Below are positions 3,481 to 57,352 of a stretch of DNA of 64,000 nucleotides, piece by piece. The translations under genes were made by a program, and so were the position numbers. The DNA lies in assembly GCA_973895155.1 (NCBI GenBank), contig OZ316891.1, positions 23,435,899 to 23,499,898 on the forward strand, in the 5' to 3' direction. Source of the stretch: Marsupella aquatica. Its lineage: Eukaryota > Plantae > Marchantiophyta. The notes beneath the pieces are model-generated. The model worked only from the letters and a program-made list of their open reading frames with translations, ran no database searches and was not told where the DNA came from. Position 1 is the stretch's first letter, and each line of letters begins with the position of its first letter.

Positions 3481-3741
3481 ATAGCTCTTGAAGCAAAATG
3501 GTAAGTCCTATGGGGCTGGTCCTGGCTAGTTTCAAGGTCCCAAAATATTTGCCCACTTAGGTCGCCGCAAATCTTAGAACTATTATGAGAGAAAGAATAT
3601 AAAGTCACCTGGGGCATCATCAACCTATAATGACGGAATTAACTAAAAATTAAAAAATGGCTTATTTACATTGACTATTAACAAGGTATCGGCCTTTGCA
3701 ACCAGTTATGTGTGACTTCCCGTGACGGGGTACCCGTCACA
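3481..3741 (-). mobile_element. 5' end of an LTR (TGTGACGGG...) inserted into the MULE transposase
   Basis: Transposase homology stops at ...KRFEH, exactly where the minus strand reads TGTGACG. This is the same terminus as the units at 17232-19701 and 40298-44285. Confidence 0.65.
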
Positions 3742-5065
3742 TGCTCGAATCTCTTACTTGGGACAATGTGCTTCTGCATTCTCTGTACTGATTGGGCCCA
3801 GTGAAATGCATCAGACCTCTCTCTATGGGAATTTACCTTTCCATCCCAAAATTCATTGCGGATCGCATTCCACCCAGCAGCAACATTATCAGCCATAAAT
3901 CCACAAAATTGCACATTCTTCAGCCCATGTTCTTCACATACCCTCCTCATGACCTTCCATGCAGTTTGCAATGACTTGCTGTCTTCTGAAACTAGCTCAC
4001 AGACAAAGATTATGCATAAGCCTCGATAGAAATGGTCATATACGTGTGCAAACATAGTGCACCATCTATTGTCAAGTATGCGGTGCATGACATCAGACAT
4101 CACCCAAGAATGCTCAAGATCCCCTCCTGGCTGCATTCTTCGAACAAGGTCCACTCCTGACCTGGGACCTTCTGTACTCATTTTAAAAATGTGCGGCCGC
4201 TCATTTGTTCCCACGTTTTGGGCTGGGAACAAAACACTTTGGATAAAAGGAAATGCAGTCTGCTTCCGCATCTCTAGTATCATGCTTACATCAGACAACA
4301 CATGAGAGTATCTCTTGATGCTCCTGATCATCGAGCGGAAAACAGATTCGTCGCCCAGAATGGCCAACATTTCATCAAGGTCGTTTGCCTCCTCAATGGT
4401 GACCATCTCAGCCACTGGGTCCTCAAAAATATCTTTAAGTTTTTGTACTGCTTCGACCTTGATCACAGACGGCCGTGCAGTAGGACTCCTCTTCAGTTCC
4501 TCCTCCATGAGATTACGCACAAGTGATCGTTGATCTTTGTTGTGCGTGAACATTGCGGGATGGGTGTGATTTCCAACATGCATGGCAACACGAGACTTGT
4601 GACAGTAATTAAGGTCATCCTTGGTTGGAGTGATGTAGTACATCTCACTTGGGCATCCAGCTATACACCTAGGAGGCCTCCTGCAGAAGCTACAAATTAC
4701 ACTTGATGGGGGAATGTCGCATCCAACAGGGAAAGGCAGCTCATTTGTGCCTGCTCGATCTCGGGTCCACTTTGCAGAATTGTGCTCTTTACGCTCTTCA
4801 AAATTCTCCAATCCCTATGCATACAACGCAGAGAACCCAAACACTTCACAGTTTGGATCTTGTAAGAGTGACTGTTGTTGTTTAGCTTTGGGCCGATATT
4901 TGCTCCTGTCTCAATCAACCTCCTCCACATGTAACAATCATTCTTTCGCTCCATGCCCAAAAAGAAACACCCCTTCGAGTATGGACCTGTAAAAGGTGGC
5001 AACTCAAAAACATGGTCTCCATCATACACTTCTGGTAATCGTTGAACTCTCTCCGGCAATTTTGT

Positions 5066-5392
5066 GGGTATGGCATGCATGACAGTAAACAGGAAACAGG
5101 TTTACTAGTACCAGCAAAAATTTTCCTGTTACCAGTAAAACGTTACTCTTACCAGGAAAAATAACCATGTCAAATTTTTTTCTAAAAAGTCAATTTCCCC
5201 AAAAAATTAAATTACAACATTTTTTGGCTAGCTTTGGGCGCTAGCATTACAAGCGCCGGGCGCTAGCAAAAAAAATAAAAAATTCAAAAAAAAATTCAAA
5301 AAAAAAATTCAAAAAAAAATTACCACTCATTTTCCTGTTACCAGTTTCTGTTTGCTGTTACTTTTTGCTGTTACTGTTTGCTGTAAATACCC
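5066..5392. mobile_element. Mutator-like MITE, family GGGTA...TACCC (327 bp)
   Basis: 9-bp TSD CAATTTTGT at 5057-5065 and 5393-5401. Homologous to 35608-35897. Confidence 0.92.
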
Positions 5393-5529
5393 CAATTTTG
5401 TGCTCAAAATCTTACGAGCAGCTTGTACACATCGAGAGGTCCCTTTCCCGTGTAGCATGGCATGAACAACACTGACAAGGAACTCATCCTTCCATACTGA
5501 ATTGCCTTCTCGAAGACCCTCTCTGAGAA

Positions 5530-6190
5530 GGAATGCCTTTGATCGAGGTGTCTCCTTTGGTGGAGTATAAGCAGCTCCTCGATCCTCCCAAAATTGGGAT
5601 GATGTAGACTCGGGTGTATTCATCCGAGAAGGTTCACCATCTTGAAGACCCCCTCTGAGATTGAATGCACTTGATCGAGATTTCTCTTTCACTGGTGTAT
5701 CACCATCTCCAAGATCCTCCCACATTTGGAATGAATTGGACCCAGCTGTACTTGTCCGAGGAGGTTCACCATCTCAAAGACCCCCTCTGACATTAAATGC
5801 ACTTGATCGAGGTTTCTCTTTCACTGGTGTATCACCATCTCCAAGATCCTCCCACATTTGGAATGAATTGGACCCAGGTGTACTTGTCCAAGGAGGTTCA
5901 CCATCTCGAAGACCCCCTCTGAGATTGAATGCACTTGATCGACGTTTCTCCTTCACTGGTGTATCCACATCTCCAACATCTTCCCACATATGGAATGAAT
6001 TTGACCGAGGTGTACTCAATCGAGAAGGTTCACCATGTCGAAGACCCCCTCTGAGATTGATTGCGCTGGGTCGAGGTGTCTCCTTCACTGGCTCATCTGC
6101 CTCTCCAACATCCTGCCACACTGGCGACGAATTTGAGTGGGGTCTACCAACTCGGTGAATGTCCTCCCAAAATTGGGACGATTTCTGACA
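5530..6190 (-). repeat. 132-bp (44-aa) coding tandem repeat, ~5 copies, in the transposase N-terminus
   Basis: TT(G/A)AATGCACTTGATCGA at 5661, 5793 and 5925. Peptide unit MWEDLGDGDTPVKEKPRSSAFNLRGGL... Confidence 0.9.
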
Positions 6191-6997
6191 CGGTGTATTG
6201 TTCCATAATTCACCCGGTTCATCAATCTGTGGGGAGTGCGCAAAATCTCCAAGACCCTCACTAACATTGCATGAACTTGCTTTCTTTTTGCAGATAGTAT
6301 AGGACACGCCACATTTTAGATACCACTCTCGCTCATCTCCGTCGCCTTTGGATTCAGCAGAAGTGGACAGCCCATCTTCTCTCTCCTCGTAAATCATGAA
6401 ATCCCCTACCTTCAAACCAAATCGGCTTGCTACTTCATGCTCCTTAGTGACTCGAACACTGTCTCCCTCAATCTGACGAAAAACAACAACATCCCCGGTT
6501 ACTGATCGGATTATCACAAGAGAAGCCATGTGTCCCAAATCCACACTGGGAATGTTAGTCCCCAGGCCTTCGGCTTTATACATCAAACGTTAAAGTCTTG
6601 GTACCACTTTATGCCAATAATACCACACTTTCAGGCTTAGAACTTGGGCGGTACATCAGACGTTAAAGTACCCGTACTTTACGCCAAGAATACCGTTCCA
6701 GACAACGTGCGTACCATATAACGATCATAGAATCTGGAGCGTACATATAACAATTGTACCACAAAGAAGGTACCTATTTGCTAGCGGCCGCCAAGAAGGT
6801 ACAGATTCTGCACATGTATAAGGTACATATTTGCCAGCAGCCGCCAAGAAGGTACATGCAAACTCTAGGGATGTAGTATATTCTCCAAGATTCCATCCGG
6901 CCTTGCCTAAAACATTTCTTCTTCTTCCGTCGTGTGGCTTATAATCCCCTTTGCAAATATGCCTGACTTGAAGGATGAATAAATAGCCTTCTGACTT

Positions 6998-7635
6998 CCT
7001 ACTCGGCGAGGGTGTCTGACATGCGATCGCGCTATCTGGCGAGCCTCTTTGTGGTGGATTAGGGACTTCCTTGGTTGCTGAGTGTCATTTACTTTTCATC
7101 CCGAGTCATTCTTGGCGGGGGTCTCCAAGATTCTAAGATGGATTCTCATAGACTTTTACCTAGAATCCTACTCGGCGAGGGTGTCTGACATGCGGTCGCG
7201 CTATCTGGCGAGCCTCGTTGTGGTGGATTAGGGACTTCCTTGGTCGTTGAGTGTCATTTACTTTTCATCCCAAGTCATTCTCGGCGGGGGTCTCCAAGAT
7301 TCTGAGATGGATTCTCATAGACTTTTATCTAGAATCCTACTCGGCGAGGGTCTCTGACATGCGGTCGCGCTATCTGGCGAGCCTCTCTGTGGTGGATTAG
7401 GGACTTCCTTGGTCGCTGAGTGTCATTTACTTTTCATCCCAAGTCATTCTTGGCGGGGGTCTCCGAGATTCTAAGATGGATTCTCATAGACTTTTATCTA
7501 GAATCCTACTCGGTGAGGGTCTCTGACATGCGGTCGCGCTATCTGGCGAGCCTCTCTGTGGTGGATTAGGGACTTCCTCGGTCGCTGAGTGTCATTTACT
7601 TTTACCTAGAATCCTACTCGGCGAGGGTCTTTGAC
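6998..7635. repeat. 169-bp tandem repeat (~3.7 copies), each unit with several CTCGGCGAG/CCGAGAT palindrome variants
   Basis: CCTACTCGG(C/T)GAGGG at 6998, 7167, 7336, 7505 and 7613; the unit starting at 7505 is internally deleted. Confidence 0.92.
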
Positions 7636-8200
7636 ATTTAGTTTCCTATGACATGGGTAACGTGTCACTTAATGGAACCCAGGTCGTAGATTAGGCCTTA
7701 TACGGGCATTAGGACCGTAGCCATAGCATAGAATAGCACGTGTAGCCGTCTATTGCCATTATGAATAGATTAGGAGTAGGTTAAAATGACCGAATAATTA
7801 CGAGTTCAGGAAGAGGATTATTACGCACGACCGAGGTACGGTGGTGGCAGCGGAGTAAAAATCAGTTAGAAGAATCACGCTTGGACCAAGGCGCCGACTT
7901 TAGCTTGTTATCAATGACCAAAACGGCCTGGCCTTCTCACGCTCGGGCTCATCCTGGCACCTCCATAAGAGAGGAGCCGATGGTGCTGTGGGCCATTTGC
8001 TCATGTCTACCCTTTTTTGAATTCGCAGACGTTGCCACCCACTCGCCCTGCTGATCGAATCGAGTTGACCTTTACAAGGAGATTATTGAGGGAGAAGAGC
8101 GGAATGTGGTGAGATTTAGTCAGGATGAGCGAGGCCTCCACGAGAAAGAGGACCAGCCGGGTGGGAACGCGGACTCAACAAACCGGACTACGAGGTTAGT

Positions 8201-10516
8201 ATGACCCTCATAGCCTTGGGATTTTGGACCTTGTTTTGCGAGGTAGGTGCTAAGTTCTCCAAAACTTACTGGTACTCTTGTCCCGAGAAAGCCGCTTACG
8301 AACAAAGATACGCAAAGCTGGTGACCAAGGTAGCACTGGTTAATTGCGAAAGGACAGCCATCACCAGGGATTCTAGCTACAACGAGTTGCGAGACTACAT
8401 CACCGAACTATATCTTAGCGAGGAAGGGCTTAGATCGGTAGCTGAGGCGATTCTTGAGGTTCCAGCGAAGTTCTTTAAGCTGAAGGGCAGCCAGCGGCTT
8501 ACTCAAGCGGAGTTCGACAAGATACCAGGGTACCTAGACCAGCAGATCGCAGCCGAAAAGCGCCAAGAAGACATCAGCAAACAATGGGAAGCGGCGCGTA
8601 ATCTTACGTTCCTCGGGTAAAGCTCCAACGCCTTCAACTGGGATATGGCTACCCCGATACCACCAGTGCCTCAGCCGATGACCACCCGCGTACCGCCGAA
8701 CCGGTCCCAAGTCCATCCAGTAATCAACACAAAGTGTTCTTCGGGTTCCGAGCAAGCTAGTCTGCAACTCCAACAGCATCCTCGTAAGCGGCCAAGGACT
8801 ACGACGGCCCCCGAATCAATAACGCGGACCAACGCCGCGCCTGCACCTGCCCCGGTAAACCCCCCGACCAACCAGACCCGACGGCCCCCGGATAACCCGA
8901 AGTCCAACTTATTATAGGTAATCCGCGTCCCCGAAGTAGTCTGGATTGCAATCAAGAAACTCAAACATGCGAACTATCTAAAGGAGCATCAGTTGGAGCA
9001 GTTTGCTCACTTGCTTTGGAGGCCGTGCGCCGCCGGGCCAAAGGAGATTTGTGAGTTCATCTCCAATTTCGACACTGACGCGTCGACCACCAAGGTTTTG
9101 GGGCAGGCCTTATCACTCACGGAGCATTGGTTAACGCAAATCTTCTGCCTACCAACCGGGCCAGTGCCGGTGGAAATCCAAATTCGGGATAAGGAGTATA
9201 CGCCGTGGCACTTCAAACCCGAGGGTAAGACGGACAACGGATACAAGCAGGGGGCGTGCACCAACTTAACCTGTATGGAGCGGCTTAACTTCATATGGAC
9301 TACCCTACACATGATTGAGCCACGATCCGAGATTTCCCTCTGCACGATCGTGCTGGTGGAATAGTACAAACGACAAAACTGGGCCCAATTCTTCTATCAA
9401 AGATTCTCGGGGGAGCTGAAGCGGGCTCAGGGTGGTATGGCTATTGGGGGGAAGACTTACTTAGGAAGTCATATCGCCATTATCCTCGCCTGGTACAAGG
9501 CACGGCGGGAGGCCAGAGGAAAGAATATGGCCACCTCAGCCCTGGCTAAAGTCACCCCCGCCCCGGAGGAGGCAACCCCGAGCATGCGGACTACCGTCCC
9601 TCGGGCAAACCCCAAGCCGGAAGCCCCGACTAATACTCCGCCACCTCCTCCTGTGGAAATTCTGCCGCCCCCTTCCGTTGAGCCTCCACTACCCGCAGTA
9701 CAACCACCCCCAATCCCTCCACCACCTGAAGATATCTTCCCCTCCCCAGCGCTGACTACAGAGGAGATCATTGCTCCACCCGAGGACCCACCGATACCCA
9801 AGAGGATGGAGGACTACCAAGTAGCCCCGGGGACCATGGCCTATGACCTGGTCCAGAAGTTTAGCCAGACTATGTCTGGGGAGCTGGCAACATACATCGG
9901 ACAACAAGTCTCGGCGTACTTTCAACCAACCTTCTTCATGTTAGAGCACCAACCATGGATCGTAAGCCGCTTGGAAGAAGAACTCATGGCGAAGGGGAAT
10001 GAGATCGGGCGCCTCCAGATGCTGGTAGAGCACCTCGAGGAGGAGGCAACAACCCACCGCAAGGAGTTAGTCCACACCGTCGAACAAAGGGACGGACTAA
10101 CCCATGAGTTAAGCGGAGCGCAGGCCGAACTCAAGAAGCTGGACGACACCGTGCTTCAATTACGCTCAGAATCTTTGGCTCGGGTTACCAGCCTGACCGA
10201 CCTCAACAAACAATTCCTGCAGGCAGCACAGCAGGTGGCTAGTCTCTCCGTCGAACGAGATAAATTGCTAGCGCAGGACCAGATCCATCGCAACTCCATT
10301 GACCAGCTCAATCTGGAGGTAGCACGGCTCCAGACCGAAGCCGATGAAGCTGCAAATGAGGCGGAGGAGGCGGTACGGGACAACAAGGCCTTGCAGGACC
10401 GTATTACCCTGCTCGTCCTCCAGCAGGGAAAACCTGGGCCCACCTCTGATCAAGGCGGCTCAAGGTCTCGTCCCGACAAGGGGACCAGCCCTGGTCCAAC
10501 CACTGCACACACGTAA
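8201..10516 (+). pseudogene. LTR-embedded accessory gene (plant-transposon-type domain + Pro-rich linker + coiled coil); one frame with 3 premature stops
   Basis: ORFs 8201, 8645, 8993 and 9437 are all in the same frame. Homologous to 41195-43819 (HMIEPRSEIS vs HMMEPRGEIS; IGGKTYLGSHIAIILAWY vs IGGKAYFASHIEIILEWY). Confidence 0.85.
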
Positions 10517-11231
10517 GGGGTGGTTAGCAAAGGGTGGAAGTAGGCGCCGCGCGAGGCAGTTAAGTCAGCGGCATCTTTTGGTTAGGCGTAACGACAGCAT
10601 GACTGTCATTAGGTGCCGATTAGCGGCAGTAAGAAGAATTAGGGCCAGATCAGTTAGGATAAGCCAACATAGGATGGAGTCCATCAACGGACTAGAATTT
10701 GTCAATAGGCTTGGCCGCTGCCATCCTGGTCGGCACCTTATCGTCGACGGTCAACCAGTCAGTGCGGCGCGGCCAGTAGTCAATAGGTAGTATCCCGGAA
10801 GGCAGTATCCTCCGGCTCTCCTCCGCGATTGTAGTATTTAGGCTTCCCCTTCCGCTATGGTCAGGGGAGAAGGCTTAGTTATCTCAGCAGAAGAAAGGTG
10901 AGGCACGGGGAGTCCCGGCCTGAGCAGGGTCAGAGCGCACCAAGGAGTGAGAGCCAGAGTCAAGCTTGCTGGGCAAGTGCGAGGCAGGGCCTCGTAGAGA
11001 CTGGGCATCAACTGCCGTTGGGCCTGCTGACCCCCTTTGAAGTCGAGTCAACCATGTAAACTGATGCTTCGCTGAGTAAATGTAGTCTTTTCCCCCTAAT
11101 GTTTCCGCAAGTAACTGGTGTTGTGTGTATGCTTTGTCTGGGTAAAGGCGCCATTTTAAGGGACGTACCGGGTGTGAACTAATGGTAGGGATTGCCACTC
11201 ATTGTATGTCACAAGGTCCTATCGTGTCGAT

Positions 11232-11311
11232 GGCTTGAAAGGCCCCAAGCCGGGAGTTAGTCCGAGTCACTAACTAAGGGAATATTCCAGCGGTGGAAAA
11301 CAAATATACCT
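11232..11311 (+). other. Conserved multi-hairpin RNA motif in LTR unit A
   Basis: Stems GGCTT/AAGCC, AGTTAGT/ACTAACT and TTCCA-GCGG-TGGAA; they covary with the copies at 17538 and 40454. Confidence 0.65.
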
Positions 11312-11489
11312 ATGACTAGTATGAATTACGCAGGTGTTATACCAGTAAGTCTATCAACTTAGCCCGACTTAGGACTAATAGAGGTCACTACACACCTCCT
11401 TGCCCGAACCCTCACCCTTACTGGTGGTCGAGGTCGCACCATGACACTAAACTGGATTTAAGGCCCAGGTTAGTGGCGCAACATTTCCA

Positions 11490-12310
11490 CCCTAAATTAT
11501 TCTCGGTGGGGGTCTCAGAGATGGACTCGGGTCATTTGGGCAACAGTATTTGTACTCGGCAAGCCTCTCTGAGATGGTAGATTTGTACGGACACGCGATC
11601 CATACAAAATTACATTGTAAAAACATTGAAAAGTACTGTACGGTCAGTTTTTGCATGCACTTTTGGGTTCATCCTAGTATTTTGGCGAGGGTCTGACATC
11701 GAATGTGGGATAGAACCAATTTGGGTCCTTCATTTGAAACGGAACACCCTTAATTTCATCTCGGAGAGGGTCTCTGAGAGACATAGTGTATGTTGTAGCT
11801 AACCCTTTGAAATTGTTAACAGGGTCCACAAGTGGTGTCATCTGGCCAAAGTACGCCCACGACTCCATCTCAGAGAGGGTCTCCGAGAGGCTGGGTCTCA
11901 TTTGGCAACCTTTCTGACCCAATATGCGATCTGGGAGAACTGCTCTCTGGCCACTTGGGGCACACGGCTCCATCTCAGAGAGGGTCTCCGAGCGATTGGG
12001 TTGCAATCTCACTTCCCTTTCCACCCAAGACGCGATTGACAATTTTTGTTGTCTGGCCGTTCGGGCCACACCACTCCATCTCAGAGAGGGTCTCTGACAT
12101 CGGATGTTGGATAGAACCATTTTGGGTCCTTCCTTTGAAACGGAATACCCTTAATTTCATCTCGGAGAGGGTCTCTGAGAGACACAGTGTATGTTGTAGC
12201 TAACCCTTTGAAACTGTTAACAGGGTCCACAAGTGGTGTCATCTGGTCCACAAGTGGTGTCATCTGGCCCACGACTCCATCTCAGAGAGGGTCTCCGAGA
12301 GGCTGGCGAC
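11490..12310. repeat. Continuation of the MULE palindrome-rich region, with a ~200-bp block duplicated ~400 bp apart
   Basis: Repeated ATCTC(A/G)GAGAGGGTCTC(C/T)GAG; 11690-11890 resembles 12090-12300. Confidence 0.85.
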
Positions 12311-12388
12311 CTTTTTGACCCAAGAAGCGTACTTTTCTACCGTGAAGTTTGCTAGAGTGTTGGACTTTTTTCTACTTCTCATATTTTA

Positions 12389-12416
12389 CCCTAAACCCTA
12401 AACCCTAAACCCTAAA
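12389..12416. repeat. Four CCCTAAA plant telomere-type repeats (telo-box-like) upstream of the ParB gene
   Basis: CCCTAAACCCTAAACCCTAAACCCTAAA. Confidence 0.85.
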
Positions 12417-15400
12417 CATAATTGGCTGCCTTTATTAAGTCTCCTCCAACAAACCCTCCTTGATCTTGTTGACTTGTGCTCTTCCCCCTTCTCTTAACCC
12501 CAATTTCCTCTTTTAGTTAAGCCACCCAAATGATAATGCATGTGGGCAACCATTTCCTCTTTGAGCTGACGCACTGAGATGTTGACGCGTCTTAGTAGGC
12601 CTTGGAATGAAATGACAGCAAGGGTCTCCTACATTCGGACTCATTTGAGTTGTAGGCCGAAGTCCCTAATTGTACCCTAAATGTACCCTAAACTCTCTCG
12701 TACTAGTGGTGGTCAGTACTCACGTTAGCATTGTGTACTTTCTTGTTTGGGCCGTTAACATGTACGTATCGAAATATAGTTAGGATCTCCCGTATCTATT
12801 GCGTACTTTAGTGTTGTGCAGTACGTGCGGTACGTTATTCCTTGAAGTGGATGTCGTTCCTTCCTCGTCACTCTTCCACGGTGTGACACCTTAGGTTTGG
12901 CGCTCGTCTTTATCACTAATCCCCGGACCTTCTCACTCTGCCTCACTCTTTTGCGTCCCTTACTCGTTCGCGCTCTAATCCGCGCTCTTCCTCAATCTTC
13001 GCATATTGGTCTTGTGCAATCTCTCACTTCTCCGTGCTCACATCCGCATTGTTCCTGCTCTTCTTCAGTCGTCCCACTCACGGTAAACTCTCCTGTGCAA
13101 CCCTGTTATTGTGTCTACTGGATTGCGTTGGTGTTTTGAGGCAGTGAGCGTTTAGGCAACATTTTTTTGTGAGCATTTGCGATAGTGATTTGCCATGAAC
13201 GTTGGTGATTCTCTCAGGTTTTTCTCTTGGCTCCCCCTTTTTCTTGATATGTAAAATCCATTTGTAGATGAATCAAATGTGTGATAGGCTAGACCCCGCA
13301 TATCCTTGAAAACTGGCTCTCTCGGCGGGGCTCGCTGAGATCTTGTCAGGTTTATAGGTCGAGCTATTGCCGAGTAATAACTCTTTCATTTCTCATGTAA
13401 TCTAAGGTCAAAATACCAAAGAGGAAAGACTCGACTGGAGCTGGACCTGCCGACAGCCAAACTTCTCAGCGGAGTAAGAAACCACGATCCAAGTCTCCTT
13501 CGCCAGTCACGTCTCGACTGACGCGCTCACAGGGTGGTCCACTTATGGAGTCAGTCGACTCTAGGAGGAAGTTTGAGCCAAAGCAAATATCATTTGAGCC
13601 TATTGGAGTGGCAGAATTGGCTGATATTGCTGAGAAGGGAGCCTGGGAGTCTATCGTCTCCAAGTATGAGACAAAGTTTAGTAAGGATCCGCCCCGGATC
13701 CCCTTGTGCCGGCTCATGCCAATGGAGGCAGTGAGGAATCTTCAGGATGAGTCGGTTGCAAAATTAAAAAAAGGGTTCAAAGAGAGCGGCTATGTTGTGA
13801 AGCTCAGCGAGTTCCACATTACTGAGTTCAATGAAATTGGAGAAACGCAGACAGTGACAGACTTCAAGCCATTTTGGGACCCTCTATGGACTCAGCTCAA
13901 TGAACAGTTTGAGCAAGAGTGCGATGCATCAAAGGAGTTCAAAGTCCTTAAGGACAAGATGTTTTGGGTTTTTTATGGAAACCATAGATACACAGCCTGG
14001 TCCGCAGTTGCTTCTGAGTATCCGGATCAATTGCAATACCATTCGTGCGTCAGATTCTCTCTTTTGAACGCTGGGAAGGACGGATTCAAGAAGGTTGAGC
14101 AAGCAATGCACGCTCTCAACTCGTAAGTACTCTCATTCGCGTCTTTTTGCAAAATGTGATTACCCGTTTGTGTAAACCTTGTGTGCCATCTTGGAGAGCC
14201 TCTCTGAAATTGCCGCTATGAGTACTGTTTGTCATTTTCAGGATAAGTGCGACTGTCGTAAAGACATCCTGGTTTAATGACGCTGATCGGGTTGCAAAGC
14301 TATTGAACACTCCATTGGAGGAGTATAGTTTGCTCATGTCAAAGGAGACAATGGAGGCTTTCATGAAGGCCCAAAATTGAGGACATGGGAAGACTTGGTA
14401 CTCAAAGAATATGACAAAAGAAGCCGTTGTGTACATCATGTCTTGGTCAAACATTGAAGCGGGACAAATCAATATCTCCAAGGAGATGGCACAAGACGCA
14501 GCTCGTGGGCACCCGTGGAGTGTGAAGAGAACTGAGGAGGAGACGGAGGCAATGATTATTGTTGCATGCAAGGCCTGGGACAACAAGTTCCCCAAGCTTG
14601 CGGCCTGCGTGAATCCGGCCAATGGAGACCAGTTCATGCCGGTATGTCGGCAGCTGTATCACAAGTTGTCAAAGGACGCCAAGCAGGGTGTGATGAATGT
14701 ACAGGTTGGCTTGGACAGGGTTCGCTTGTTTGCTGGGGCTTGGGTAACTGCAGAGTGCAGAGTAAAGCTATTGAAAGCTCATTTTGGAACGGAGGAGGAG
14801 AAGAGTATGTATCACCATCCACGTAGCAATGGTGATGCTGCAATTAGATCCTGGTTAGCGGTCTGGTCAATGTGGTGTTACATTGACCACGTTGGTTGTG
14901 TGATTTTGACCGATTTTGCTGCAAAGGCCTACCAAAGACAGATGTACCGTGAGTTTTCCGGGACAGAGGAGGAATTTGCAGAGCTATATAGAAGGCTTTA
15001 TTGAGCTTATGTGCAAGAGAAATCACTGAAACTAGGCGGGGAAATTTGGATTGACGGAAAGGCCACGGTCTTGTTAAAAGAATTGTGGAAAAAGCGAACA
15101 AAGAGGTGCGTGACAAGATTTCTAATCAATCAGGAGAACATGAATGCATCCATATTGAAAGAGCTGCCATGGGCACTCACATCTTGGATGGAGCCGAAAG
15201 GGAGCCTTAGCATGTATCCATGTGATGGCCAAATTCCTAATGGCAGAGTAGTCTGCGATTGGGAACGTCAAAACTGCCCATGGTATATGGAATACCGTGA
15301 CTGGAATACTTTTATCGATGACGCTGAGAAGGAGTGTGCAATGAAGCTGAAGGACCAACAGGAGCCTACAAATTACTACGATATATCCAAGCTGCGACAA

Positions 15401-15629
15401 TTGACGGACTCTATGCCCCAGGCAATAGCTTTGGAGGCCATAATCCCAATGGACCCAGCCTATGATGGGAAAAAGGCCCGAAAGGAAGGAGGCGAGAAGA
15501 AGGTCGACAAGGAACAATCCGCCGAGGCCAGTCAGTCAAATTCTATAAGCACTCCAACAAAGACCCCATCAGGTAACTCAATTCCTTTCAAATCAGGTGG
15601 TGGCTTGCATTGGAAAAAACCTTGGCTGG

Positions 15630-15805
15630 GTTGGCGAGGCTTGCCGAGATTAAGTGTCTGGTCCAGTCCAGATGTTGGCGAGGCTCTCCGAGATTAAGTG
15701 TCTGGTCCAGTCCAGATGTCAACGAGGCTCGCCGAGATGAAGTATTAGTTGAGTAATAAGTTGCTTGCATATAATGAACCCGATCTTGGCGAGGCTCGCC
15801 GAGAT
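15630..15805. repeat. Intronic ~43-bp repeats with the palindrome, e.g. ATCTTGGCGAGGCTCGCCGAGAT (15783-15805)
   Basis: Four palindrome copies lie between donor 15572 and acceptor 15847. Confidence 0.85.
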
Positions 15806-17537
15806 GCAGTTGCCATCATGAAGCTCATCAATTTGCATCCTATGCAGGTCATGCAGAGATCCAAACGGAACCTGATTCTATCAAGAGCAAGGGTGTAGAG
15901 CTGGCTACAAAGGCAGCAGTTGAGGACAGTCCAGGGGTTTTGCAGGGTCCAGGGCACAAGGATAAACAACCAATAGTTGAGTTGGGTCCAGACGAGGCTC
16001 CACTGCAAGAATTTGACTTGCCTCCGCATGAGGCTCCTGAAGTACAAGATGAATTGGCTGACGAGCAGCAAGGTGAGGATGATGTGGGTGAGCAAGAGGA
16101 AGAGGAGCGAGAGGAAGAGGACAAAGGACAATCCGGAGATGAAGGGCGCTTGTCTGATATCTCTCATGTGCCTTACCGGCCACCATTACTGTCACGGCAA
16201 AAGGAAAAGGCCTTAAAAAAAAAGCAAACTAGGCGACTCAGAGCTCCCAAAGGGAGCCCAAGCAAAGCACGTGACGAGGAATTTCCTCCTCTTCCTTCCC
16301 CCACTGAGTCGCCTCCCCCGCCCGGCACTGGAGAGGTTCCGCCCACAACCATCCAACCTGACCCCACATTGGAAAATGAGGAGGATGAAGAGGCCCTTGG
16401 AGAACAGGATAACACAAAGCTGGAAGGAGTAAGGCGTCCTTATGCCAATACCATGTCTTCCCAGAGCAAACATATGTATTTTAGGTGGTCTCCAAATCTA
16501 TTTCCAACTTTTTTTGATGCGGCTAAAGAAGGTACCGAACCCCCTGTAGTTAGTAAATTGATCTCATGGTGCAGAAAGCTATTGCGGGAAGGTTTGTGTC
16601 AAAATGCCTGGAGAAAAGGGGGGAAGCGAGTGAAGACTGGTGCAGATTTAATTCTGATACATATGGGAACAGACACGCGTATGGTCGAGGGTAAGTCCAC
16701 CCCGTTGTGGAATTTGTTCCGGGAGGACGACTTGAACCGGGTTCAGGAGTTTGCTCGAGATGTCCTTGATTCCGAAGGACTGTTTGCCATCGTGCACAGT
16801 GGTTCGCTTCGGCACTCAACTTGCATTTATGATGCATTAGTTTACGAGAATACCAACTGGGGGTTGAAAGAAAGCTTCTTTATCTGGAACGACACACCCA
16901 CCTACGATGGTAGGACTGGGAAGCGAGTAAGTCCCATCAATTACCTACTTCTTCATTTATTTTTTATTCCAATGACTTACTATCCTAAACTAAGGAAGTC
17001 TGACCTCTGAATATGTTTGGCCGATCCAGAGCGAATATCTCAAGCTAGACCTGTGGGGGTTTCAATCTGCTGTGGAGATATGCCCAAAGGACGATGTGGC
17101 ACCAATTAGTGCAGAGCTTGATATGAAGAGTAGGAATGGGCTAACGAACTATACATCCAAGAAGAATCAGGTTAACGATCCTTTTGCGGGCACATTGTCG
17201 CCAGCAACGCTCCAATGTATCATCGAATATATGTCACGCGATTGACATGGGTCTTAACACCAAAAATGTCACTATGGGTGCCAAAACCATCTCCTTGTAC
17301 CTGAGGATCACGAAGGGATGTTGTGAAGGTCGATAAACACCAATTTATGCCCTTAACACCAGACTATCATAGCAAGACTCTATCACACATCACCCAAGCT
17401 CAATCCCAAGGAACCAAGGTTGGGGATCAGGTCTGCGCTCATGATAGTTCTGGTGAGAAGGGGTCTTCATATTGGGCCCGTACACACAGGGCCTAGCGCT
17501 ATGGTGCGCATAGGTCTATACGTATGCTTACTGTCAT

Positions 17538-17619
17538 AGGTATGTTTCTATTCCGCCGCCGGAATGTACCCATAAACCAGTGACTCCGGACTGATTCCCG
17601 GCTTAGGGACTTCTAAGCC
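17538..17619 (-). other. Conserved multi-hairpin RNA motif in LTR unit B
   Basis: Minus strand: GGCTT/AAGCC, AATCAGT/ACTGGTT and TTCCG-GCGG-CGGAA. Confidence 0.65.
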
Positions 17620-18964
17620 ATTGCCCCACCACTCTACCATTCCACTCTCAGCAATCAGAGCTATGACAGTCCTCACCCAGCCCGCTTCAATGCACCCTGT
17701 ACACCTCTCAGTGGCGCTGCTAGTCCCATCATACACTCAGATTGCCTCACACACACACACATCCATGAGAGAAATGAGGCCTGAGAGGAAAACTCAGTTA
17801 AATTCAAAGATGTGCACAACAGTTCACTGAGAACACTTGATCCGAACACTAGGCCCGAAGGCTGTCTCCTCCAGATTACGACGTGCTTGCCCTGCAAGCC
17901 CCATGCTTGCCATGCAAGCTCAATCCTGAACCTGAGCCCGGCTCACTCCAGATTGCGATGGCAGATTGGACTCGAACCAATCTCGTACTTGCCTTGCAAA
18001 CTCAATCCTGAACTCAACCTCCTTCACTGCACTTCATTCTTGGGGGCACATACAGATCTCACACCTCCAATTCAGAACGTCAAGTTACGCATACATAGTT
18101 GACTCAACTTCAAAGCTGGTACCAGGCTAACGGCGATCTACCCCAGGCTGCAATGAGGCTCGGCCTCACGCTTGCCCTGCAAGCTCCGCTCTGGCCATAG
18201 ATCCCTTAGTGCTCTCCACCAGACAAAGGGCGGGACTCCCCATGGATCACGTAGCCTTGCCAGACTGAACTGTAAATGCTCCTCTTGTTGCCCCTCAATC
18301 AATGTCTCAACCTCCCTAATGTGCTCACCACAAATCAAATTGACATCCTCCCCACAATTTACAATCACCAATACATCACCTATCACCAAGGCTCTGTATC
18401 GGGGAAAAGAACCCAGTTGTGCTACCCACTAGAAAGAGCCACAATCCAGCTCGCAAACCTAGCAACTCGTTGCTGTGAAGCTTGGCTGATTACTCCCTGA
18501 GTAATAGCACAACCAAGCTCTCCCCAACACGCAGCGTCCAAGTCCAGCCTTGCTTGCACAGAGCTCCTCCCTGCTGCTCAGTCTAAGTGAGATCACACAA
18601 CTGAAGTCCCCCCTGCCTCTACCGGGGGGCTGCTCTATATACTCTCTCATTGAGCCCAAATGGGTGGATGCTACGCTGCTGGAGCCCCATCCCAGCCCTA
18701 ACAGAGCCACCACTATCTCTAAATACTGAACCCTAACTCGCAGCTTTATTTCTATCTCAAATTGGCTATGTACTTCGGATTTGGCCCTCCTCCATGGTTT
18801 TTGCGAGCTTGCGCCTCCTCTCTTGATTTCTCTATTCAACCATTTTCTGCGTGGATAGCAGCGTTGGAAGCGGCTTGAGCTCTTCTTTCCAACGAGGTTA
18901 ATTATAGCCGATTTGGTCAAATACACAGAGAGTTATGCCCCCGCAACCGAGAGGGGGTACTCAC

Positions 18965-19345
18965 TCCTGCGCTAACCCGAGTTACATAGCTAACCCGAGT
19001 TCGGCTAACCTAGCTATCCTATCTAACCCGAGTAGAGCTAACCCGTGGTCTCGGGTTAGGCCGCTACCCACTATCCGCTAACCGCTAACCTAAGCTGAGC
19101 CCAAACCCGAGCTTACCTATGCTAACCTGAGCCCGAGTTTAGGCTAACCCGAGTTAAGTCTAACCCAGGATCAATCTAATCCGAACCCGGGTTAAGCCTA
19201 AGCTGAAGCTGTGCTTACTTGAGCTAAGCTGAAGCCGTGCTTACCTAAGCTAAGCTGAAGCCGTGCTTACCTAAGCTAAGTTGAAGCCGTGCTTACCTGA
19301 GCTAAGCTGAAGTCGTGCTTACCTAAGCTAAGCCGTGGTCAAGCT
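18965..19345. repeat. Short CTAACCCGAG-type repeats and a 26-bp tandem array (x~5) near the 5' end of unit B
   Basis: Unit GCTAAGCTGAAGCCGTGCTTACCTAA at 19223, 19249, etc. Confidence 0.85.
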
Positions 19346-20164
19346 TGGGTTAACCCGAAACTGAAGCCGAATCCGCTAATTTCGGCCACAAGTTAACCCG
19401 TCACACTAATCAGGCCGTATCTTTCTTAATACACCTCCGTTTCTCAAGTGTTTTATATCGATTTTACTCGCCTTGACCAGATCTTTCCAATGCTCTTTAC
19501 AGATCCAGATTTGGTGACATATTAAAAGAGATATGGTCGTCAACCACCCGCGACATAGCTTTTATTTCCCTACTCTTAACGCCATGATTGCCCTTATTCT
19601 TGCCATCTTGCTAATTGTTATGCAATATCAATAGCTACTCCTTGCATACAGCAACCTACTTAATCAAATTACAAAATAAGGACCATGTCATTGGCGTCAC
19701 AATATACAACACACCCTGGGGCAACTATCCTCACTTTCAACGCACAGTTTGGGGCAATATTCAAGGCGGGTGAAAATTGCGGGCGGATGGTGTTGGGACT
19801 GAATCCTATCCTCACTTCGGAACTTGTGCGCAAGACCAACTGGCACAACTGGTTGGAGTGATCTCCCCGGAGGAGGAAGAGGTGGTCTGTTCAAAAGCCA
19901 ATCCAGAAAAGCGCAAGAAGAAAAAGCCGGCAGTACTCCCAACGACATGTAAGTTTTCTGGCGTTTGACGTTGTTCATTTCATATTTGCTTGCTCGTCGC
20001 AATGGTTGACAATAGAGGGATACAAGTCAGCGGCCTCGCCGATATGTATGCATGTCGGCTGACCTCGCTGACATTCATAGTGTCTGGCCTCCTCTACAAG
20101 CGAGGGCAAGTCCTAACTTGAGATGCATGTTGGCGGACCTTGCCAAGATTCATTCCTCTACATG

Positions 20165-21285
20165 CAACTCAGGAAGAGTCATCTTGGCGGGCCTCTCCAA
20201 GATCCGTCTGAGGAAGAGTGATCTCGGCTGGCCTCTCCAAGATCCGTCTCAGGAAGAGTTAATCTCGGCTGGCCTCTCTGAGATCCATCTCAGGAATAGT
20301 CATCTCGGTTGGCCCGTCTCAGGAAGAATGATCTTGGCTGGCCTATCCAAGATCCGTTGTAGGAAGAGTCAATCTCGGCTGGCCTCTCTGAGATCCGTCT
20401 CCGGAATAGTCATCTCGGTTGGCCTTTCCGAGATCCATCTCAGGAAGAGTGATCTCGGCTGGCCTCTCCAAGATCCGTCTTAGGAAGAGTCAATCTCGGC
20501 TGGCCTCTCTAAGATCCGTCTCCGGAATAGTCATCTCGGCTGGCCTCTCTGAGATCCATCTCAGGAATAGTCATCTCGGCTGGCCTCTCCGAGATCCGTC
20601 TCAGGAAGAGTGATCTTGGCTGGCCTCTCCAAGATCCGTCTTAGGAAGAGTCAATCTCGGTTGGCCTCTTTGAGATCCGTCTCAGGAACAGTCATCTCGG
20701 CTAGCCTCTCCGAGATCCGTGTACCGAAGAGTCATCTCGGCTGGCATCTCCAAGATCTGTCTCAGGAATAGTCAATCTCGGCTGGCCTCTCTAAGATCCA
20801 TCTCAGGAATAGTCATCTCGGCTGGCCTCTACGAGATCCGTCTCAAGAAGAGTGATCTCGGCTGGCCTCTCCGAGATCCGTGTACCGAAGAGTCATCTCG
20901 GCTAGCCTCTCTGAGATCCGTGTACCGAAGAGTCATCTTGGCTGGCGTCTCCAAGATCTGTCTCAGGAATAGTCAATCTTGGCTGGCCTCTCTGAGATCC
21001 GTCTCAGGAATAGTCATCTCGACTGGCCTCTCCAAGATTCGTCTTAGGAAGAGTCAATCTCGGCTGGCCTCTCCAAGATCCGTGTACCAAAGAGTCATCT
21101 CGACTAGCCTCTCCGAGATCCATGTACCGAAGAGTCATCTCGGCTGGCGTCTCCAAGATCTGTCTCAGGAATAGTCAATCTCGGCTGGCCTCTCTGAGAT
21201 CCGTCTCAGGAATAGTCATCTCGGCTGGCCTCTACGAGATCCATCTCAGGAAGAGTGATCTCGGCTGGCCTCTTCGAGATCCGTC
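20165..21285. repeat. Tandem array of ~28 units of 40-41 bp, each containing ATCTCGGCTGGCCTCTCCGAGAT
   Basis: Unit AGGAAGAGTCATCTCGGCTGGCCTCTCC(A/G)AGATCCGTCTC with no unique spacers. Lies between donor ~19949 and the exon at ~21380. Confidence 0.95.
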
Positions 21286-21321
21286 GATCCATGTTGACTA
21301 CCTTCCCCGACAGATGCCTTC

Positions 21322-22503
21322 TTGTTTACGTCTATTTTGGGCGCAATACATTATTTGATTGAATTTAAGTATAACTTAGTAGCAGTTCCCGACAGGACTA
21401 TCGAGTCAGCTACAGCGAAATGGGACAGCCAGGACAGACGGCTTGTCAAGCTCGCGTGGGAGGAAGCTTCGGCATATTTCTCACCGGAGAAGTTAACCCT
21501 TCCGTGCTACGCTGCTGATACCTATCATGAAGAAATAGTGCCTCGCTGTGTACAAGAGAGAAAGAGGAAAACTCTCAAATTTGTCGATGATAGGGCAAAA
21601 GAAGCTCAATCGGATGAGAGTAGCTCGGTAGGAAGTGACAGTCTCCAAACTCACCATGTAAGTATAAGATTATCAAGCTCCAGTTCCAAAGAGTAATGTT
21701 TGAATGAATTTACCTTCATTGCAGCTCAGGAGAGACCTGAGCAACCAGTGAATGAGGGGCTGACTCCCCGGGTAGGAGTGAAAGAGGTGGGGCTTGCAAA
21801 CAAAGGAGTGCCCGCACAACAGCAACCATCCAAATTTTTGGCGATAGTGAAGAAGGCATTGGACCCCAAGGCGGACCAAAAAGAGGTCATAGTGACAATC
21901 GAGGACGTGCACTTGACGAGGGCACATTTAAAATGCTTGAGGCCAAAAAAATGGATCACTTGCGACGTCATCAATGCTTACATTGCTTTACTGGAACGAA
22001 GAGCACAAACCCTTCATAAACCCAAGGCCATGTTATTGCCAACACATTTTTACCAAGTGATGACATCTCCGGAATATAACTTCAACGCAACGTTGGCATA
22101 TTGGCGGGGCATTCAAATGTGGGAGCACAAGTACGTTTTAATCCCTGTCTACCAGCCAAAACACTGGGTACTAGTTGTGGTTGATACTGCCTTGCGGCAA
22201 CTGCATTTACTTGATCCGCTTGTGCCCGAAGCACAGGATGGCACAGAAGTGTTCAAAGTAGCTCAGTTTCTTTCGGACCTCTCCATCTTGCGGGGTCGTA
22301 CCTTGTTATGTCCATTAGAATGGCCACGCATTTACCGAGATAACATTCCAGGTCAAGGGGATGATTACAATTGTGGTGTATATATCATAATCTACATGGA
22401 GCGTATTTCTGGAGGCGGCGTACTGAACTTTGACCCTGCACTTATAGACATCATGCGGCAAAAGATTGTTGTGGACCTTGTCTGCCAGACAATTACCCTG
22501 TAG
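21322..22503 (+). CDS. Ulp1/SENP-family (peptidase C48) SUMO-type protease; probably terminal exons (~21380-21657, 21725-22503) of the MULE cargo gene
   Basis: CLRPKKWITCDVINAYI, LLPTHFY, VLIPVYQPKHWVLVVVD, LLDPL and PGQGDDYNCGVY: His-Asp-Cys triad plus oxyanion Gln intact. Confidence 0.9.
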
Positions 22504-22935
22504 AGAGGATGGAAGATGGAGACGCAGCCTAGTGGAATTTAGTTCAGAAAATTGAGATAGACAACATCGTTGTAAAGTACAAAGTTTAATAAAAAGTGTG
22601 TCATCCAAATGTTCTTAATGTGGCTCCTATTTGATATGCTATGTTGTACACGTTGCTGGGTATGTTTTCATCTTGGCGAGCTCAGCCGAGATGGAACAAC
22701 ACTCCAAGGATATCTCAGAGAGGGCGCCAAGATGGTTAGAAAGGGCACCAAGATGGTCAGAGAGGCAGCCGACATTACTAATTGTCCGAACCAAAACAAT
22801 GTCGGAGTGGACTCCGACATAGGGTTTGACTGTGGGTGTGAATTAAGTCCATGTCGGCGGCGTCGCTGAGTTTCGGGCACAGACTGATATCAGTGACTGA
22901 TGAAAGTCACTGATAACTGATGAAGTTGTGTACCT

Positions 22936-23368
22936 CATCCTTGCGGGGGAAAATTGGATGGTTGCGATGCACATCATCCTCCAATACATCCACGGACGCC
23001 ACAACCTACACCTGTACACCTTCAATTGGGGCACATCCGTCACAATATCTTAGCAATACCCCATCGCAAGTAGGACTTTCACCATCCTCGCGGGGGGAAA
23101 TTGGATGGTTGCGATGCACATCATCCTCCAATACATCCACGGACGCCACAACCTACACCTGTACACCTTCAATTGGAGCACATCCGTCACAATACCTTAG
23201 CAATACCCCATCGCAAGTAGGACTTTCACCATCCTCGCGGGGGGAAATTGGATGGTTGCAATGCACATCATCCTCCAATACATCCACAAACGCCACAGCC
23301 TACACCTACACGCCTGCAATTGGAGCCATCCGTCAGAATTGCCCAACAATACCCCCTCACAAGTGGGT
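22936..23368. repeat. 147-bp tandem repeat (~3 copies), possibly a decayed coding repeat of an older element
   Basis: TTGGATGGTTGC at 22954, 23101 and 23248. Confidence 0.9.
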
Positions 23369-35607: not shown

Positions 35608-35897
35608 GGGTATGGCCCGCGTGACAGTAAACAGGAAACAGGTTTACTGGTACCAGGAAAATTTTTCCTGTTACCAGCAAAAAGTTACTGTTACCAGCAA
35701 AAACAACCATGTCAAAATATTTTCTAAAAATTCTCATTTTCCAAAAAAATTTAAGTTACAACATTTTTTGGCTAGCTTTGGGCGCTAGCAAATAAAATTT
35801 CAAAAAAAAATTTCAAAAAAAATTACCACTCATTTTCCTGTTACCAGTTTCTGTTTTCTATTATTGTTTGTTGTTTCCTATCGTTTATAAATACCCC
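35608..35897. mobile_element. Mutator-like MITE, GGGTA...TACCC family (290 bp)
   Basis: 9-bp TSD GGGGAACCA at 35599-35607 and 35898-35906. The empty site is present in the paralog near 32790. Confidence 0.93.
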
Positions 35898-40453: not shown

Positions 40454-40531
40454 AGGTATGGTTTGTGTTCCGCCGCCGGAACGTACCTTAGTCGATAGCA
40501 GGATCGACCCCGGCTTAAGGGCTTCTAAGCC
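40454..40531 (-). other. Conserved multi-hairpin RNA motif in LTR unit C
   Basis: Minus strand: GGCTT/AAGCC, GTCGAT/ATCGAC, and AGGTA..TTCCG-GCGG-CGGAA..TACCT. Confidence 0.65.
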
Positions 40532-41194
40532 TTCGTGCTGTCCGCCTTCGATCCGGATTCGATGATACAGGTCCTCAACCCGTGCTCGCAACCACTTACC
40601 CGCAGGCTGCACCCTGTGCACGTCTCGGGTAGTGCGTTCTGCCTGGCGCTGCCACCCATATACGAGAAACCCACACACATATGCGCACACATGCATACAA
40701 TCTCGATTTACACGAAGGAAAATGATGGGAAAGGATTTTACTTCAAAGGGAACATATGCGTACACTTAGTTGACACGACAGCCCTGGAATGCACAGGTTC
40801 AAGGCCGAGGGTGCACACTACAACGGAGCCCGGCTCCGCACTCGCCCGACGAGCTTAGTCCTACCCCCTCCCCTTGGTACTCTGTCATTCCCAAAGGTCG
40901 GGACTCCCCGCATGTCCCGCGGATGTCCGACTCTGAAACTAAAAACCCCCCCTGCCTCTACCGAGGGGTGCACTAAATACTAAGAGCCGAGGAACGGGGT
41001 GTCCTCCCGCCGAAGATTCGTTGACTAAGGTCCTAACTAAGCTGACAGTCAGGCCGGAAAACGGTTGTGTCTTATTAGAAGATCCTAATCTACGCAGGCT
41101 GGACAGCAGGGCAGCGCTGCTGTACCTAAGGCAGGTGCCTGTCCCAAGAGCCTGACTAAGCCAATCCTAATCCTAATCTATTCCTACTCCGCCG

Positions 41195-43819: not shown

Positions 43820-43920
43820 TCAGAGGAGATAGTAGTGGCGACCTAGAGAGAACGAGAGAGCTGGGGTCGAAGCTGGCGCGCGGACTGATGGACTGGTGCA
43901 CTACAAAGGGTTGGCTCCCC

Positions 43921-43927
43921 TTTTATA
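43921..43927 (-). promoter_or_regulatory. TATA box of LTR unit C
   Basis: Minus strand GTATAAAAGGGGAGCC; similar CCATAAGAGAGGAGCC at ~7963 in unit A. Confidence 0.55.
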
Positions 43928-56789: not shown

Positions 56790-57352
56790 GAGATAAGTAA
56801 TCTCATCAGTTATCAGTCACTTTCATCAGTGTACCTGATATCAGCTGCCACCTCATCTTAGAGAGGTCACCAAGTTGCGATGTGAAAAAGAAAAAAATGA
56901 AGAAAAAAAAAAATCTTGAAATTTTCTTCAAAATTTGAAGGAAAACTTCTTTTTTTCCAAAAAAAATTCGCCATGAGGCATCCGTACCGTACGGACACCT
57001 ATCTCGGCGAGCCCAGCCGAGATGGGAAAAAAATTCCAAAATTTTTTTTTTCAAATTTTTTATTGGGGAAAATTTTTGGTTTTTTTTTTACCACATTTTT
57101 TTTCGATCCGTACGCCCATCTCGGTGAGGCCAGCTGAGATGGGGAAAAAATTTTCAAATTTTTTTTTTCGGGAAATTTTTATGTTTTTTTTTTTTGATTT
57201 TTTTTCGGTCGTACGCCCATCTTGGCGAGGTCAGCCGAGATTGAATCAACCTTGGCTGCCCAGCTGAGATGAACGGAAGTTCGAAAGCCCCATCTCAACT
57301 CCTCAACTGAGATTCTAAAATTTTTGAGATAACTGATGATGTTGTATACCCC
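56790..57352. mobile_element. Mutator-like MITE (563 bp) related to the large MULE and filled with the ATCTCGGC-N7-GCCGAGAT palindrome
   Basis: 9-bp TSD CTAACTGTG / CTAACTGCG. Left end CATCAGTTATCAGTCACTTTCATCAGT matches the reverse complement of 22885-22925. Palindromes at 57001, 57118 and 57219. Confidence 0.85.

Follow-up and report, generated by a model that had tools for sequence, protein, structure and literature searches.

Can a plant transposon encode a protein that recognizes the DNA of its own copies, and would such a protein keep them from being silenced? The question is raised by a stretch of 64,000 nucleotides from the liverwort Marsupella aquatica (contig OZ316891.1; the whole stretch is called the window below), a nest of plant-type transposons in which a Mutator-type element (Mutator-like element, MULE) extends across 3742–22936. 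The transposase gene and an accessory gene of this element point in opposite directions, and a 23-bp palindrome recurs throughout its non-coding DNA. The reading toward which we lean, from sequence comparisons and structural modeling, is that of a decayed multi-copy Mutator-type element whose accessory protein, with a predicted ParB fold, would bind the element's own palindromes as a dimer and counter silencing. Self-recognition by the accessory protein would fit the ParB fold, the location of the palindromes in non-coding DNA, the conservation of the palindrome in the same intron of diverged relatives and the presence of a distinct motif at the termini. The initial annotation had proposed that the element recognizes its copies in this way and either marks or de-SUMOylates them; the recognition part is kept here on the four grounds just given, whereas marking by methylation is not.

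A palindrome in the non-coding DNA of the element

The 23-bp palindrome was matched 39 times with up to three mismatches compared to 0.12 matches expected, and when 7-bp arms with up to two mismatches were combined with different spacers, the 9-nt spacer gave 43 matches compared to 0–2 for the other eleven spacers. A search with a matrix trained on 17 of the window's own sites returned 63 palindromes in the window compared to 0–2 in 10 simulated windows. Non-coding DNA of the element harbors 53 of the 63 (34 in introns 1, 2 and 4 of the accessory gene, 18 in intergenic DNA and one in the 3′ region), while six reside in repeats that encode part of the transposase, three in a 563-bp relative of the element, and a single weak one in ~44 kb of other repeats in the window. 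The same search returned no palindrome from 4,610 nt of accessory exons, nor from the larger two of the nested insertions, which together have 6,305 nt.

Repeat searches and the motif matrix place many of these sites in tandem units of 40, 44, 132 and 169 bp. The intergenic region at 6561–7650 contains 169-bp tandem repeats and eight palindromes, and a further ten lie at 11481–13412, which comprises intergenic DNA and the likely 5′ leader of the accessory gene. Intron 1 (14123–14241, plus strand as the gene itself) contains one palindrome at 14188, intron 2 (15573–15847) contains four, three of them within a 44-bp tandem repeat, and intron 4 (19949–21385) contains a 40-bp tandem array (20168–21285, 28 units) and 29 matches, whereas the 3′ region with the right terminus (22504–22936) has one, at 22670. 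Introns and intergenic DNA had been described as packed with palindrome variants, but of the five introns three carry the palindrome and the remaining two do not. The form given initially, ATCTCGGC-N7-GCCGAGAT, has no exact occurrence within 3742–22935; its sole exact copy in the window is located at 57001. In the transposase gene, 132-bp coding repeats (5508–6120, minus strand) are in frame and carry five palindrome variants, with a sixth at 6245; since variants are found within each in-frame repeat, the palindrome has spread into coding DNA with the frame intact. In the 563-bp relative (56790–57352), which is non-autonomous and has no gene, the three palindromes are separated by A/T-tract linkers, about 100–117 bp.

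Conservation was assessed in intron 1. Three metagenome contigs carry exon 1, and the same intron harbors two palindromes in contig L001 and one in contig L002, both of which were kept out of the matrix training. Exon 1 of these contigs shows 53% and 55% identity to the window with saturated 4-fold sites (8/27 and 8/29), and the palindrome is both the only alignable piece of their intron 1 and the best local alignment in all three pairwise comparisons among the window, L001 and L002. Across 23 non-redundant sites, the half-site ATCTCGG retains T4 in 46/46 and G7 in 45/46 cases, and 34 of its 39 departures are not mirrored in the opposite arm, which favors two protein half-sites over a hairpin. 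Some palindromes form 7–10-bp hairpins, several barely fold, and an Rfam scan gave no match; a hairpin role was ranked low due to the unmirrored departures and the poor folding. Exact palindrome loci found in prokaryotes (2) and viruses (29) were also considered and attributed to chance, as they are nearly all single copies and match no ParB or methyltransferase profile.

The terminus of the element carries another motif. The right end is located at 22936, and the final 55 bp before it, which hold repeated ATCAGT-type units, match both ends of the 563-bp relative. These units, which are likely the transposase site, differ from the 23-bp palindrome and have no copy in four interior stretches. 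From the right end it is ~245 bp to the nearest matrix-scored palindrome and more than 8 kb to the conserved copy in intron 1. A further variant at 22799–22820, 115 bp inside the right end, has perfect arms and a spacer that is shorter by one base.

The predicted accessory protein

The accessory gene comprises six exons with ~1,540 codons and GT-AG introns, and all its splice phases match when the solo long terminal repeat (LTR) and the 1-bp deletion of this copy are set aside. It had been annotated as one spliced gene opposite the transposase; exons and phases are consistent with that description, and it is the splice phases that argue for a single transcript. Exon 1 (13413–14122) encodes the ParB/Srx-fold domain, as indicated by its relatives, a model and structure searches. 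The AlphaFold2 (AF2) model of 13620–14123 reached a predicted local distance difference test (pLDDT) value of 94 and resembles ParB-CDP, Noc, KorB, PadC, Srx and SerK. In Foldseek, all listed matches down to rank 47 are of ParB/Noc/KorB/Srx type (best E 0.024, probability 1.00), with none at E ≤ 0.001 among the matches listed, and in the VIA structure search the best nine of 14 rows are of the same type, the KorB N-domain (52–147) being the counterpart of exon 1 with Z 7.7, a root-mean-square deviation (rmsd) of 2.5 and 90 aligned residues. Box II, (D/E)GNHR in its general form, reads DGNHR in most relatives and YGNHR in the window (13974–13988), so that the GxxR phosphate-binding motif is present with a tyrosine preceding its glycine; among 102 aligned members, G120 is conserved in 95, N121 in 100, H122 in 95 and R123 in 85. 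The initial annotation had named a ParB/Srx-type GNHR domain and suggested looking for its structural match with an AlphaFold-type model; the match was found, and model, both structure searches and box II conservation all bear the domain out. At the level of sequence profiles, none of the 102 aligned exon 1 members matched Pfam ParB at E ≤ 0.1 (weak rows were obtained for DndB (2) and DUF1015 (1)), and searches of PDB sequences with exon 1 and with the A1 profile returned nothing.

Exon 1 has 202 relatives at E ≤ 0.001, many of them ending at the same intron. Its nearest Atlas clusters (13536–14123; 0.95) are eukaryotic, with DUF3723 on 31–47% of their members. DUF3723 turns up in the available text of papers on Starships and may hold a ParB-type domain, and the literature search returned no paper combining DUF3723 and ParB. 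Thirty relatives of the accessory protein were looked up: 11 come from the liverwort Riccia sorocarpa and six from Adiantum ferns, and no red alga is among the named sources. In Riccia, proteins with lengths of up to 1,244 aa align colinearly with exons 1–3 (E 1e-24, 1e-41 and 3e-14), and searches of viral contigs and prokaryote genomes gave no relatives of the protein. In a quick version of a ParB tree (116 rows, rows <110 aa omitted), which supports no claim on origin, the window groups with four proteins next to Riccia members. Additionally, sequencing runs X5 and X7 contain contigs that share only the box II region (13942–14198), with loose ends and summed depths of ~33,000 and ~2,700; a related family seems to be extremely abundant in other organisms.

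Exon 2 (14242–15572) encodes a ~390-aa all-helical domain that is shared with Riccia proteins (tblastn E 1e-41) and was modeled at pLDDT 74 with no clear fold match. KorB 151–252 aligned weakly to its residues 7–211 (Z 4.2, rmsd 3.8, 101 aligned, rank 33) in a manner colinear with the exon 1 match. Exon 3 (15848–16926) encodes an acidic/basic low-complexity linker followed by the first half of a predicted amino-methyltransferase (MTase) fold, according to the family profile and alignment, and exon 4 (17030–17231 and 19707–19948, interrupted by the solo LTR) encodes the second half, according to the profile. PF01555 was matched by three of four, four of 13 and one of 27 proteins among the relatives, with a best E of 9e-6 and all scores just under the curated cut-off (26.7 bits), and window exons 3 and 4 match the profile of MTase-bearing relatives at E 5e-14 and 0.009. 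These two results support the β-class amino-MTase-like fold of the initial annotation as a prediction from sequence. The alignment of the relatives' sequences gives the motif order of the β class, with motif IV N-terminal to the S-adenosylmethionine (SAM) loop, and in the phage comparison all 18 annotated rows among the best 30 (E 0.01–7) are DNA methyltransferases; a PDB sequence search with the exon-3 half returned nothing.

In β-class amino-MTases the catalytic motif IV is (D/N/S)PP(Y/F/W) and the SAM-binding loop of amino-MTases is FxGxG. The former is absent from the window, which reads HMGT (16660–16671), and from all 19 relatives with a readable site, these having been located by pattern among 173 relatives that are mostly single-exon fragments. 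Asp and Pro are kept in 19/19 of them; 18 read DxP(T/S/I) without the aromatic residue (DLPT, DLPS, DMPT, DMPS, DFPT and DFPI) and one reads DVPF. The SAM-loop position is TFNAQFG in the window (19733–19753) and DFAGGWG in Riccia members. Catalysis is unlikely in the window family given HMGT at motif IV and the degenerate SAM loop, and the idea that the element marks its own copies by methylation is not supported, given the same loop and the loss of the catalytic motif in the window and the 19 relatives.

Exon 5 (21386–21657) encodes a short tail that aligns with the C-terminus of Riccia proteins (weak profile match, E 1.3), and contigs from public runs show an in-frame 6-bp insertion here in other copies. 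Exon 6 (21730–22503) encodes a Ulp1/SENP (C48) protease, identified by Pfam (PF02902, 54.9 bits compared to a cut-off of 20.7) and by alignment to SENP2 (E 1e-19), in which the His (22162), Asp (22213) and Cys (22372) of the triad as well as the oxyanion Gln are aligned, so that the triad is intact as first described. No C48 domain was detected in any of the 44 relatives scanned. To judge from the sequences, Ulp1 appears to be a family-specific, optional addition, since the six Riccia models long enough to include the shared C-terminal tail all terminate with it, although the Riccia gene models may be incomplete. In the Adiantum capillus-veneris protein P0062, the ParB and helical domains and an MTase remnant are followed at the C-terminus by a phosphatase of the NIF/FCP1 type (E 2e-12). 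Perhaps the enzyme in this position is exchangeable, or this gene model may join neighboring genes.

Copies, decay and surroundings of the element

The copy in the window is broken, as had been noted, with lesions in both the transposase gene and the accessory gene. The transposase gene (3742–6560, minus strand; delimited by open reading frames (ORFs), Atlas MULE score 0.95, repeat units and the motif matrix) is of MULE type according to its Atlas features, in agreement with the initial assignment: at 3720–4814 (minus strand) the best Atlas match is 0.95 with PF10551 in 61% of the matched cluster, 175 features are shared, and the same clan is found in all 10 best family matches. A Pfam scan of the transposase ORF with hidden Markov models (HMMs) gave no match, nor did PDB sequences when the transposase was used as query. 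The gene is damaged by a stop near 5774, a frameshift near 4700–4814, a miniature inverted-repeat transposable element (MITE) and a cut at ~3741 by an apparent retroelement. The left end of the element lies outside the window because the transposase gene meets the apparent retroelement end there, and position 3742, previously taken as the element's end, is the edge of that insertion instead. A 9-bp target-site duplication, with one mismatch, surrounds the 563-bp relative, whose termini are similar.

The element had been called giant, but of its 19.2 kb, ~6.6 kb belong to three nested insertions that swell its size. The MITE (5066–5393), unrelated to the element and located inside the transposase gene, is flanked by a 9-bp duplication, and its family has a related copy near 35608–35875. 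A foreign 3.8-kb insertion (7651–11480, approximate edges, plus strand) contains retroelement-like accessory ORFs and no palindromes, as determined by ORF comparison and the motif matrix; its ORF 8918–9361 shares 38% identity (E 1e-26) with the ORF at 41198–43819 of the window. The third is the 2.5-kb solo-LTR-like insertion in exon 4 (17232–19701), which has TG...CA ends, a 5-bp duplication at its junctions and, by contig depth, a very high copy number.

The accessory gene of this copy has lost its start codon in exon 1 and carries two stops in exon 2 (near 14378 and at 15002) and a 1-bp deletion near 19792. Comparison with contigs of public runs marks three of these lesions as specific to the window copy: the missing start codon, the stop at 15002 and the 1-bp deletion. 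The search for intact copies that had been advised yielded contigs free of several of its lesions, and sister copies appear to be intact. The solo LTR is missing from most copies of the element, as the joint 17225→19701 without it has a depth of 190.6 in run X1 compared to ~200 for the element. Run X1 contigs over exons 2–6 have depths of 170–226 and 0–6 differences each, and exon 6, encoding Ulp1, has the same depth as the remaining exons: the three enzyme-type modules travel together in near-identical copies. Variant contigs at depth 12–25 suggest roughly ten near-identical copies of the element, although contig depth is no copy number and the public runs may include the source sample. From the 80 rows listed (906 further rows exist), 36 copy-specific changes were hand-picked in which the window disagrees with nearly all the X1 depth. 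C>T or G>A accounts for 26 of them, and 22 of these 26 fall in CG/CHG contexts, which hold 34% of the cytosines; this excess points to methylation of the window copy by the host. In word-index searches, which are weak evidence, neither exon 1 nor the Ulp1 exon had a long relative, so that no full-length ParB-to-Ulp1 protein came to light.

Other repeats occupy the surroundings. A 147-bp tandem repeat (22936–23364) begins exactly where the element ends, has depths in runs X1 and X2 comparable to or above those of the element, and may be a separate repeat that received the element insertion. A broken CACTA/EnSpm element (39109–47195, minus strand) contains Transposase_21, DUF4218 and DUF4216, with an ORF for a SET domain (PF00856, 25.6 bits, above cut-off) directly upstream of its transposase, and may be a second transposon of this host carrying a chromatin enzyme. 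Two Copia-type retrotransposons, whose gag-pol ORFs were recognized by eye, lie at 24682–29973 and 59960–63787; the first must be very young as its 187-bp direct repeats are identical.

Competing explanations and known systems

In the mechanism that we propose, two proteins would use two sites: the transposase would read its own, different motif in the terminal repeats, and the accessory protein, presumably spliced into one chain of ~1,540 aa, would act at the internal palindromes. The two half-sites would be read by the helical domain that follows the ParB fold, in the manner of the central domain of ParB/KorB, the ParB fold would be a nucleotide switch for loading or release, and the MTase fold would serve in the window family as a non-catalytic DNA- or SAM-binding module. 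Ulp1, an optional add-on as in KIU-type VANC genes, would strip SUMO from nearby silencing proteins. Binding of the palindrome by the accessory protein is probable in view of sequence and model, an anti-silencing outcome is slightly favored by analogy, and true sliding as a CTP clamp, also argued by analogy, is doubtful. The boldest version, in which a nucleotide-switched ParB clamp of seedless plants loads at palindromes in its own introns, slides, brings along Ulp1 and an MTase-fold reader and strips silencing, is an analogy to which we give little credence.

Several observations weigh against self-recognition by the accessory protein. For exon 2, the match to KorB falls in the noise band for helical models and establishes no DNA-binding fold; the intron-1 conservation comes from two short contigs, and the third (L003, 33% identity) shows no palindrome, although it ends ~60 nt into the intron. 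Nor does the presence of a DNA-modifying fold next to it require that a ParB fold read a site: the available part of one report describes a phage ParB protein, partnered with a DNA dioxygenase, that can dispense with NTP residues and shows no obvious DNA-binding domain (PMC13229309). VANC motifs are described as short, non-palindromic and fast-changing (PMC5735166, in the portion available), compared to palindromic and slow-changing here. Moreover, the gene-less 563-bp element with its three palindromes is equally predicted if the palindrome is a transposase site, either as an internal transposition enhancer or for transposase-driven activation, and the accessory gene is unrelated to it. We consider this explanation rather improbable. 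It would also account for the six palindromes inside the transposase gene, and there is precedent for a MULE transposase that binds its own family and demethylates it unaided: according to the accessible text, AtMu1 transposase binds motifs of its family, including those of non-autonomous elements, and lowers methylation (bioRxiv 10.64898/2026.08.24.746577). However, the AtMu1 binding peaks reported there sat at terminal inverted repeats (TIRs), whereas the termini of both elements in the window share another repeated motif, and the nearest matrix-scored palindrome and the conserved intron-1 copy lie ~245 bp and more than 8 kb from the right end.

It is unlikely that the palindrome is a host transcription-factor site, an RNA or single-stranded DNA hairpin hoarded by the element, or the product of unselected spread by local tandem duplication. 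Many palindromes do lie within tandem units and some form hairpins, but the same 23-mer occurs in unrelated repeat units and survives at saturated divergence in introns that are otherwise dissimilar, departures are mostly unmirrored while several copies barely fold, and the other repeats in the window provide just one weak match. An active 6mA/4mC (N6-methyladenine/N4-methylcytosine) writer aimed at element DNA by the ParB module, at least in better-kept relatives, is very improbable in our estimation. The β-class motif order, the PF01555 matches, the DFAGGWG loop of Riccia members, the Asp and Pro kept at motif IV, the methyltransferase annotation of the phage rows and the enrichment of ParB–MTase fusions in phages all speak for such a writer; on the other side stand the loss of the motif IV aromatic in 18 of 19 relatives, HMGT and TFNAQFG in the window, and the precedent of DIRS1 transposons, which retain amino-MTase folds as inactive copies in the part of the work available (PMC4738411).

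If self-recognition by the accessory protein holds, the element would represent a second, unrelated land-plant solution beside VANDAL, and the idea of ParB self-recognition put forward for red algae becomes testable in liverworts, since the 23-bp site and the protein are both defined and sister copies appear to be intact. It also raises the question of why MULEs repeatedly fuse Ulp1 to such factors. A protein that spreads from its site would put the ParB switch to use in a eukaryote and would provide a programmable tool against silencing, and the sliding-clamp version, if true, would be the first sliding ParB clamp on eukaryotic chromatin and a convergence on the VANC/KIU design from a phage-type ParB–methylase fusion.

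Among known systems, the accessory protein resembles ParB–parS, KorB, Noc and VirB in its N-terminal ParB/Srx fold, its GxxR-type box II and its palindromic site, and VirB of Shigella, a member of the ParB family, is described in the available text as lifting silencing and binding a site similar to parS (PMC6237886). Unlike bacterial ParB–parS, no ParA-type family was found among the 16 ORFs scanned with Pfam across the element, and the fold has an insert of ~45 extra residues compared to the bacterial ParB family. Among orphan and fused ParB folds, 11 of the 28 tested are binders, with ATP, CTP or GTP as ligand, and others bind nothing detectable; their preference is not predictable from sequence or AF3, and fusions of ParB to N6_N4 MTases are enriched in phages, as stated in the accessible part of that study (PMC12704722). 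Like these fusions and ParB–Tls loci, as far as they are described there, the accessory protein has a ParB fold N-terminal to a β-class amino-MTase in one chain, and a phage-type ParB–MTase fusion is likely the ancestral architecture. It differs from the phage fusions by its introns, by the helical and low-complexity stretch of ~600 aa that separates the domains and by an eroded catalytic motif, and the searches found no prokaryotic sequence match.

DUF1985/DUF287 is the core domain of VANC, and neither the window's ORFs nor 33 aligned relatives matched a Pfam domain of VANC type. The accessory system nevertheless shares with VANDAL/VANC and KIU of eudicot MULEs the MULE host, the accessory protein and the optional Ulp1. 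VANC21 is reported, in the text available, to remove methylation across the element and to have its binding motifs in tandem repeats as well as in introns and intergenic DNA (PMC5735166), and the palindromes likewise sit in introns, intergenic and tandem DNA of their own element; unlike the 8–9-bp fast-evolving VANC motif, the 23-bp palindrome is conserved across diverged families. KIU (Kaonashi) is presented in the accessible portion of its description as a VANC gene with a captured Ulp1 of undefined role (PMC13317346). The closest published proposal concerns red algae, in which Petroll et al. (bioRxiv 10.1101/2025.02.11.637652) described, in the part available, Plavaka (EnSpm) and Chondrus Mutator elements with a ParB-like PAG3, inverted-repeat arrays and a PF01555 PAG2, and proposed self-binding; they also name VANDAL as the only elements shown to bind and reactivate their own DNA via an accessory protein. 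By published description, the two cases share a giant DNA transposon, an N-terminal ParB-like protein, adjacent palindrome or inverted-repeat arrays and a PF01555-type domain in the cassette. In the red-algal elements, ParB is fused to a 2-oxoglutarate (2OG) oxygenase and the methylase has a gene of its own, in which it is joined to SET, whereas here ParB, a degenerate MTase fold and Ulp1 are predicted as one protein of land plants with the motif in introns; the C-terminal part of this protein is the MTase fold and Ulp1, with no 2OG oxygenase. The literature searched contained no report of the land-plant family, of a single ParB-helical-MTase(-Ulp1) chain or of motif conservation at the level of an intron. 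The accessory system is thus, in its proposed way of working, like VANC/KIU and PAG3, while it stands outside the VANC family and fails the catalytic test of amino-MTases. ParB and inverted-repeat self-recognition has already been proposed for red algae; what is new here is a candidate for it in land plants, predicted as one fused protein and with an optional Ulp1.

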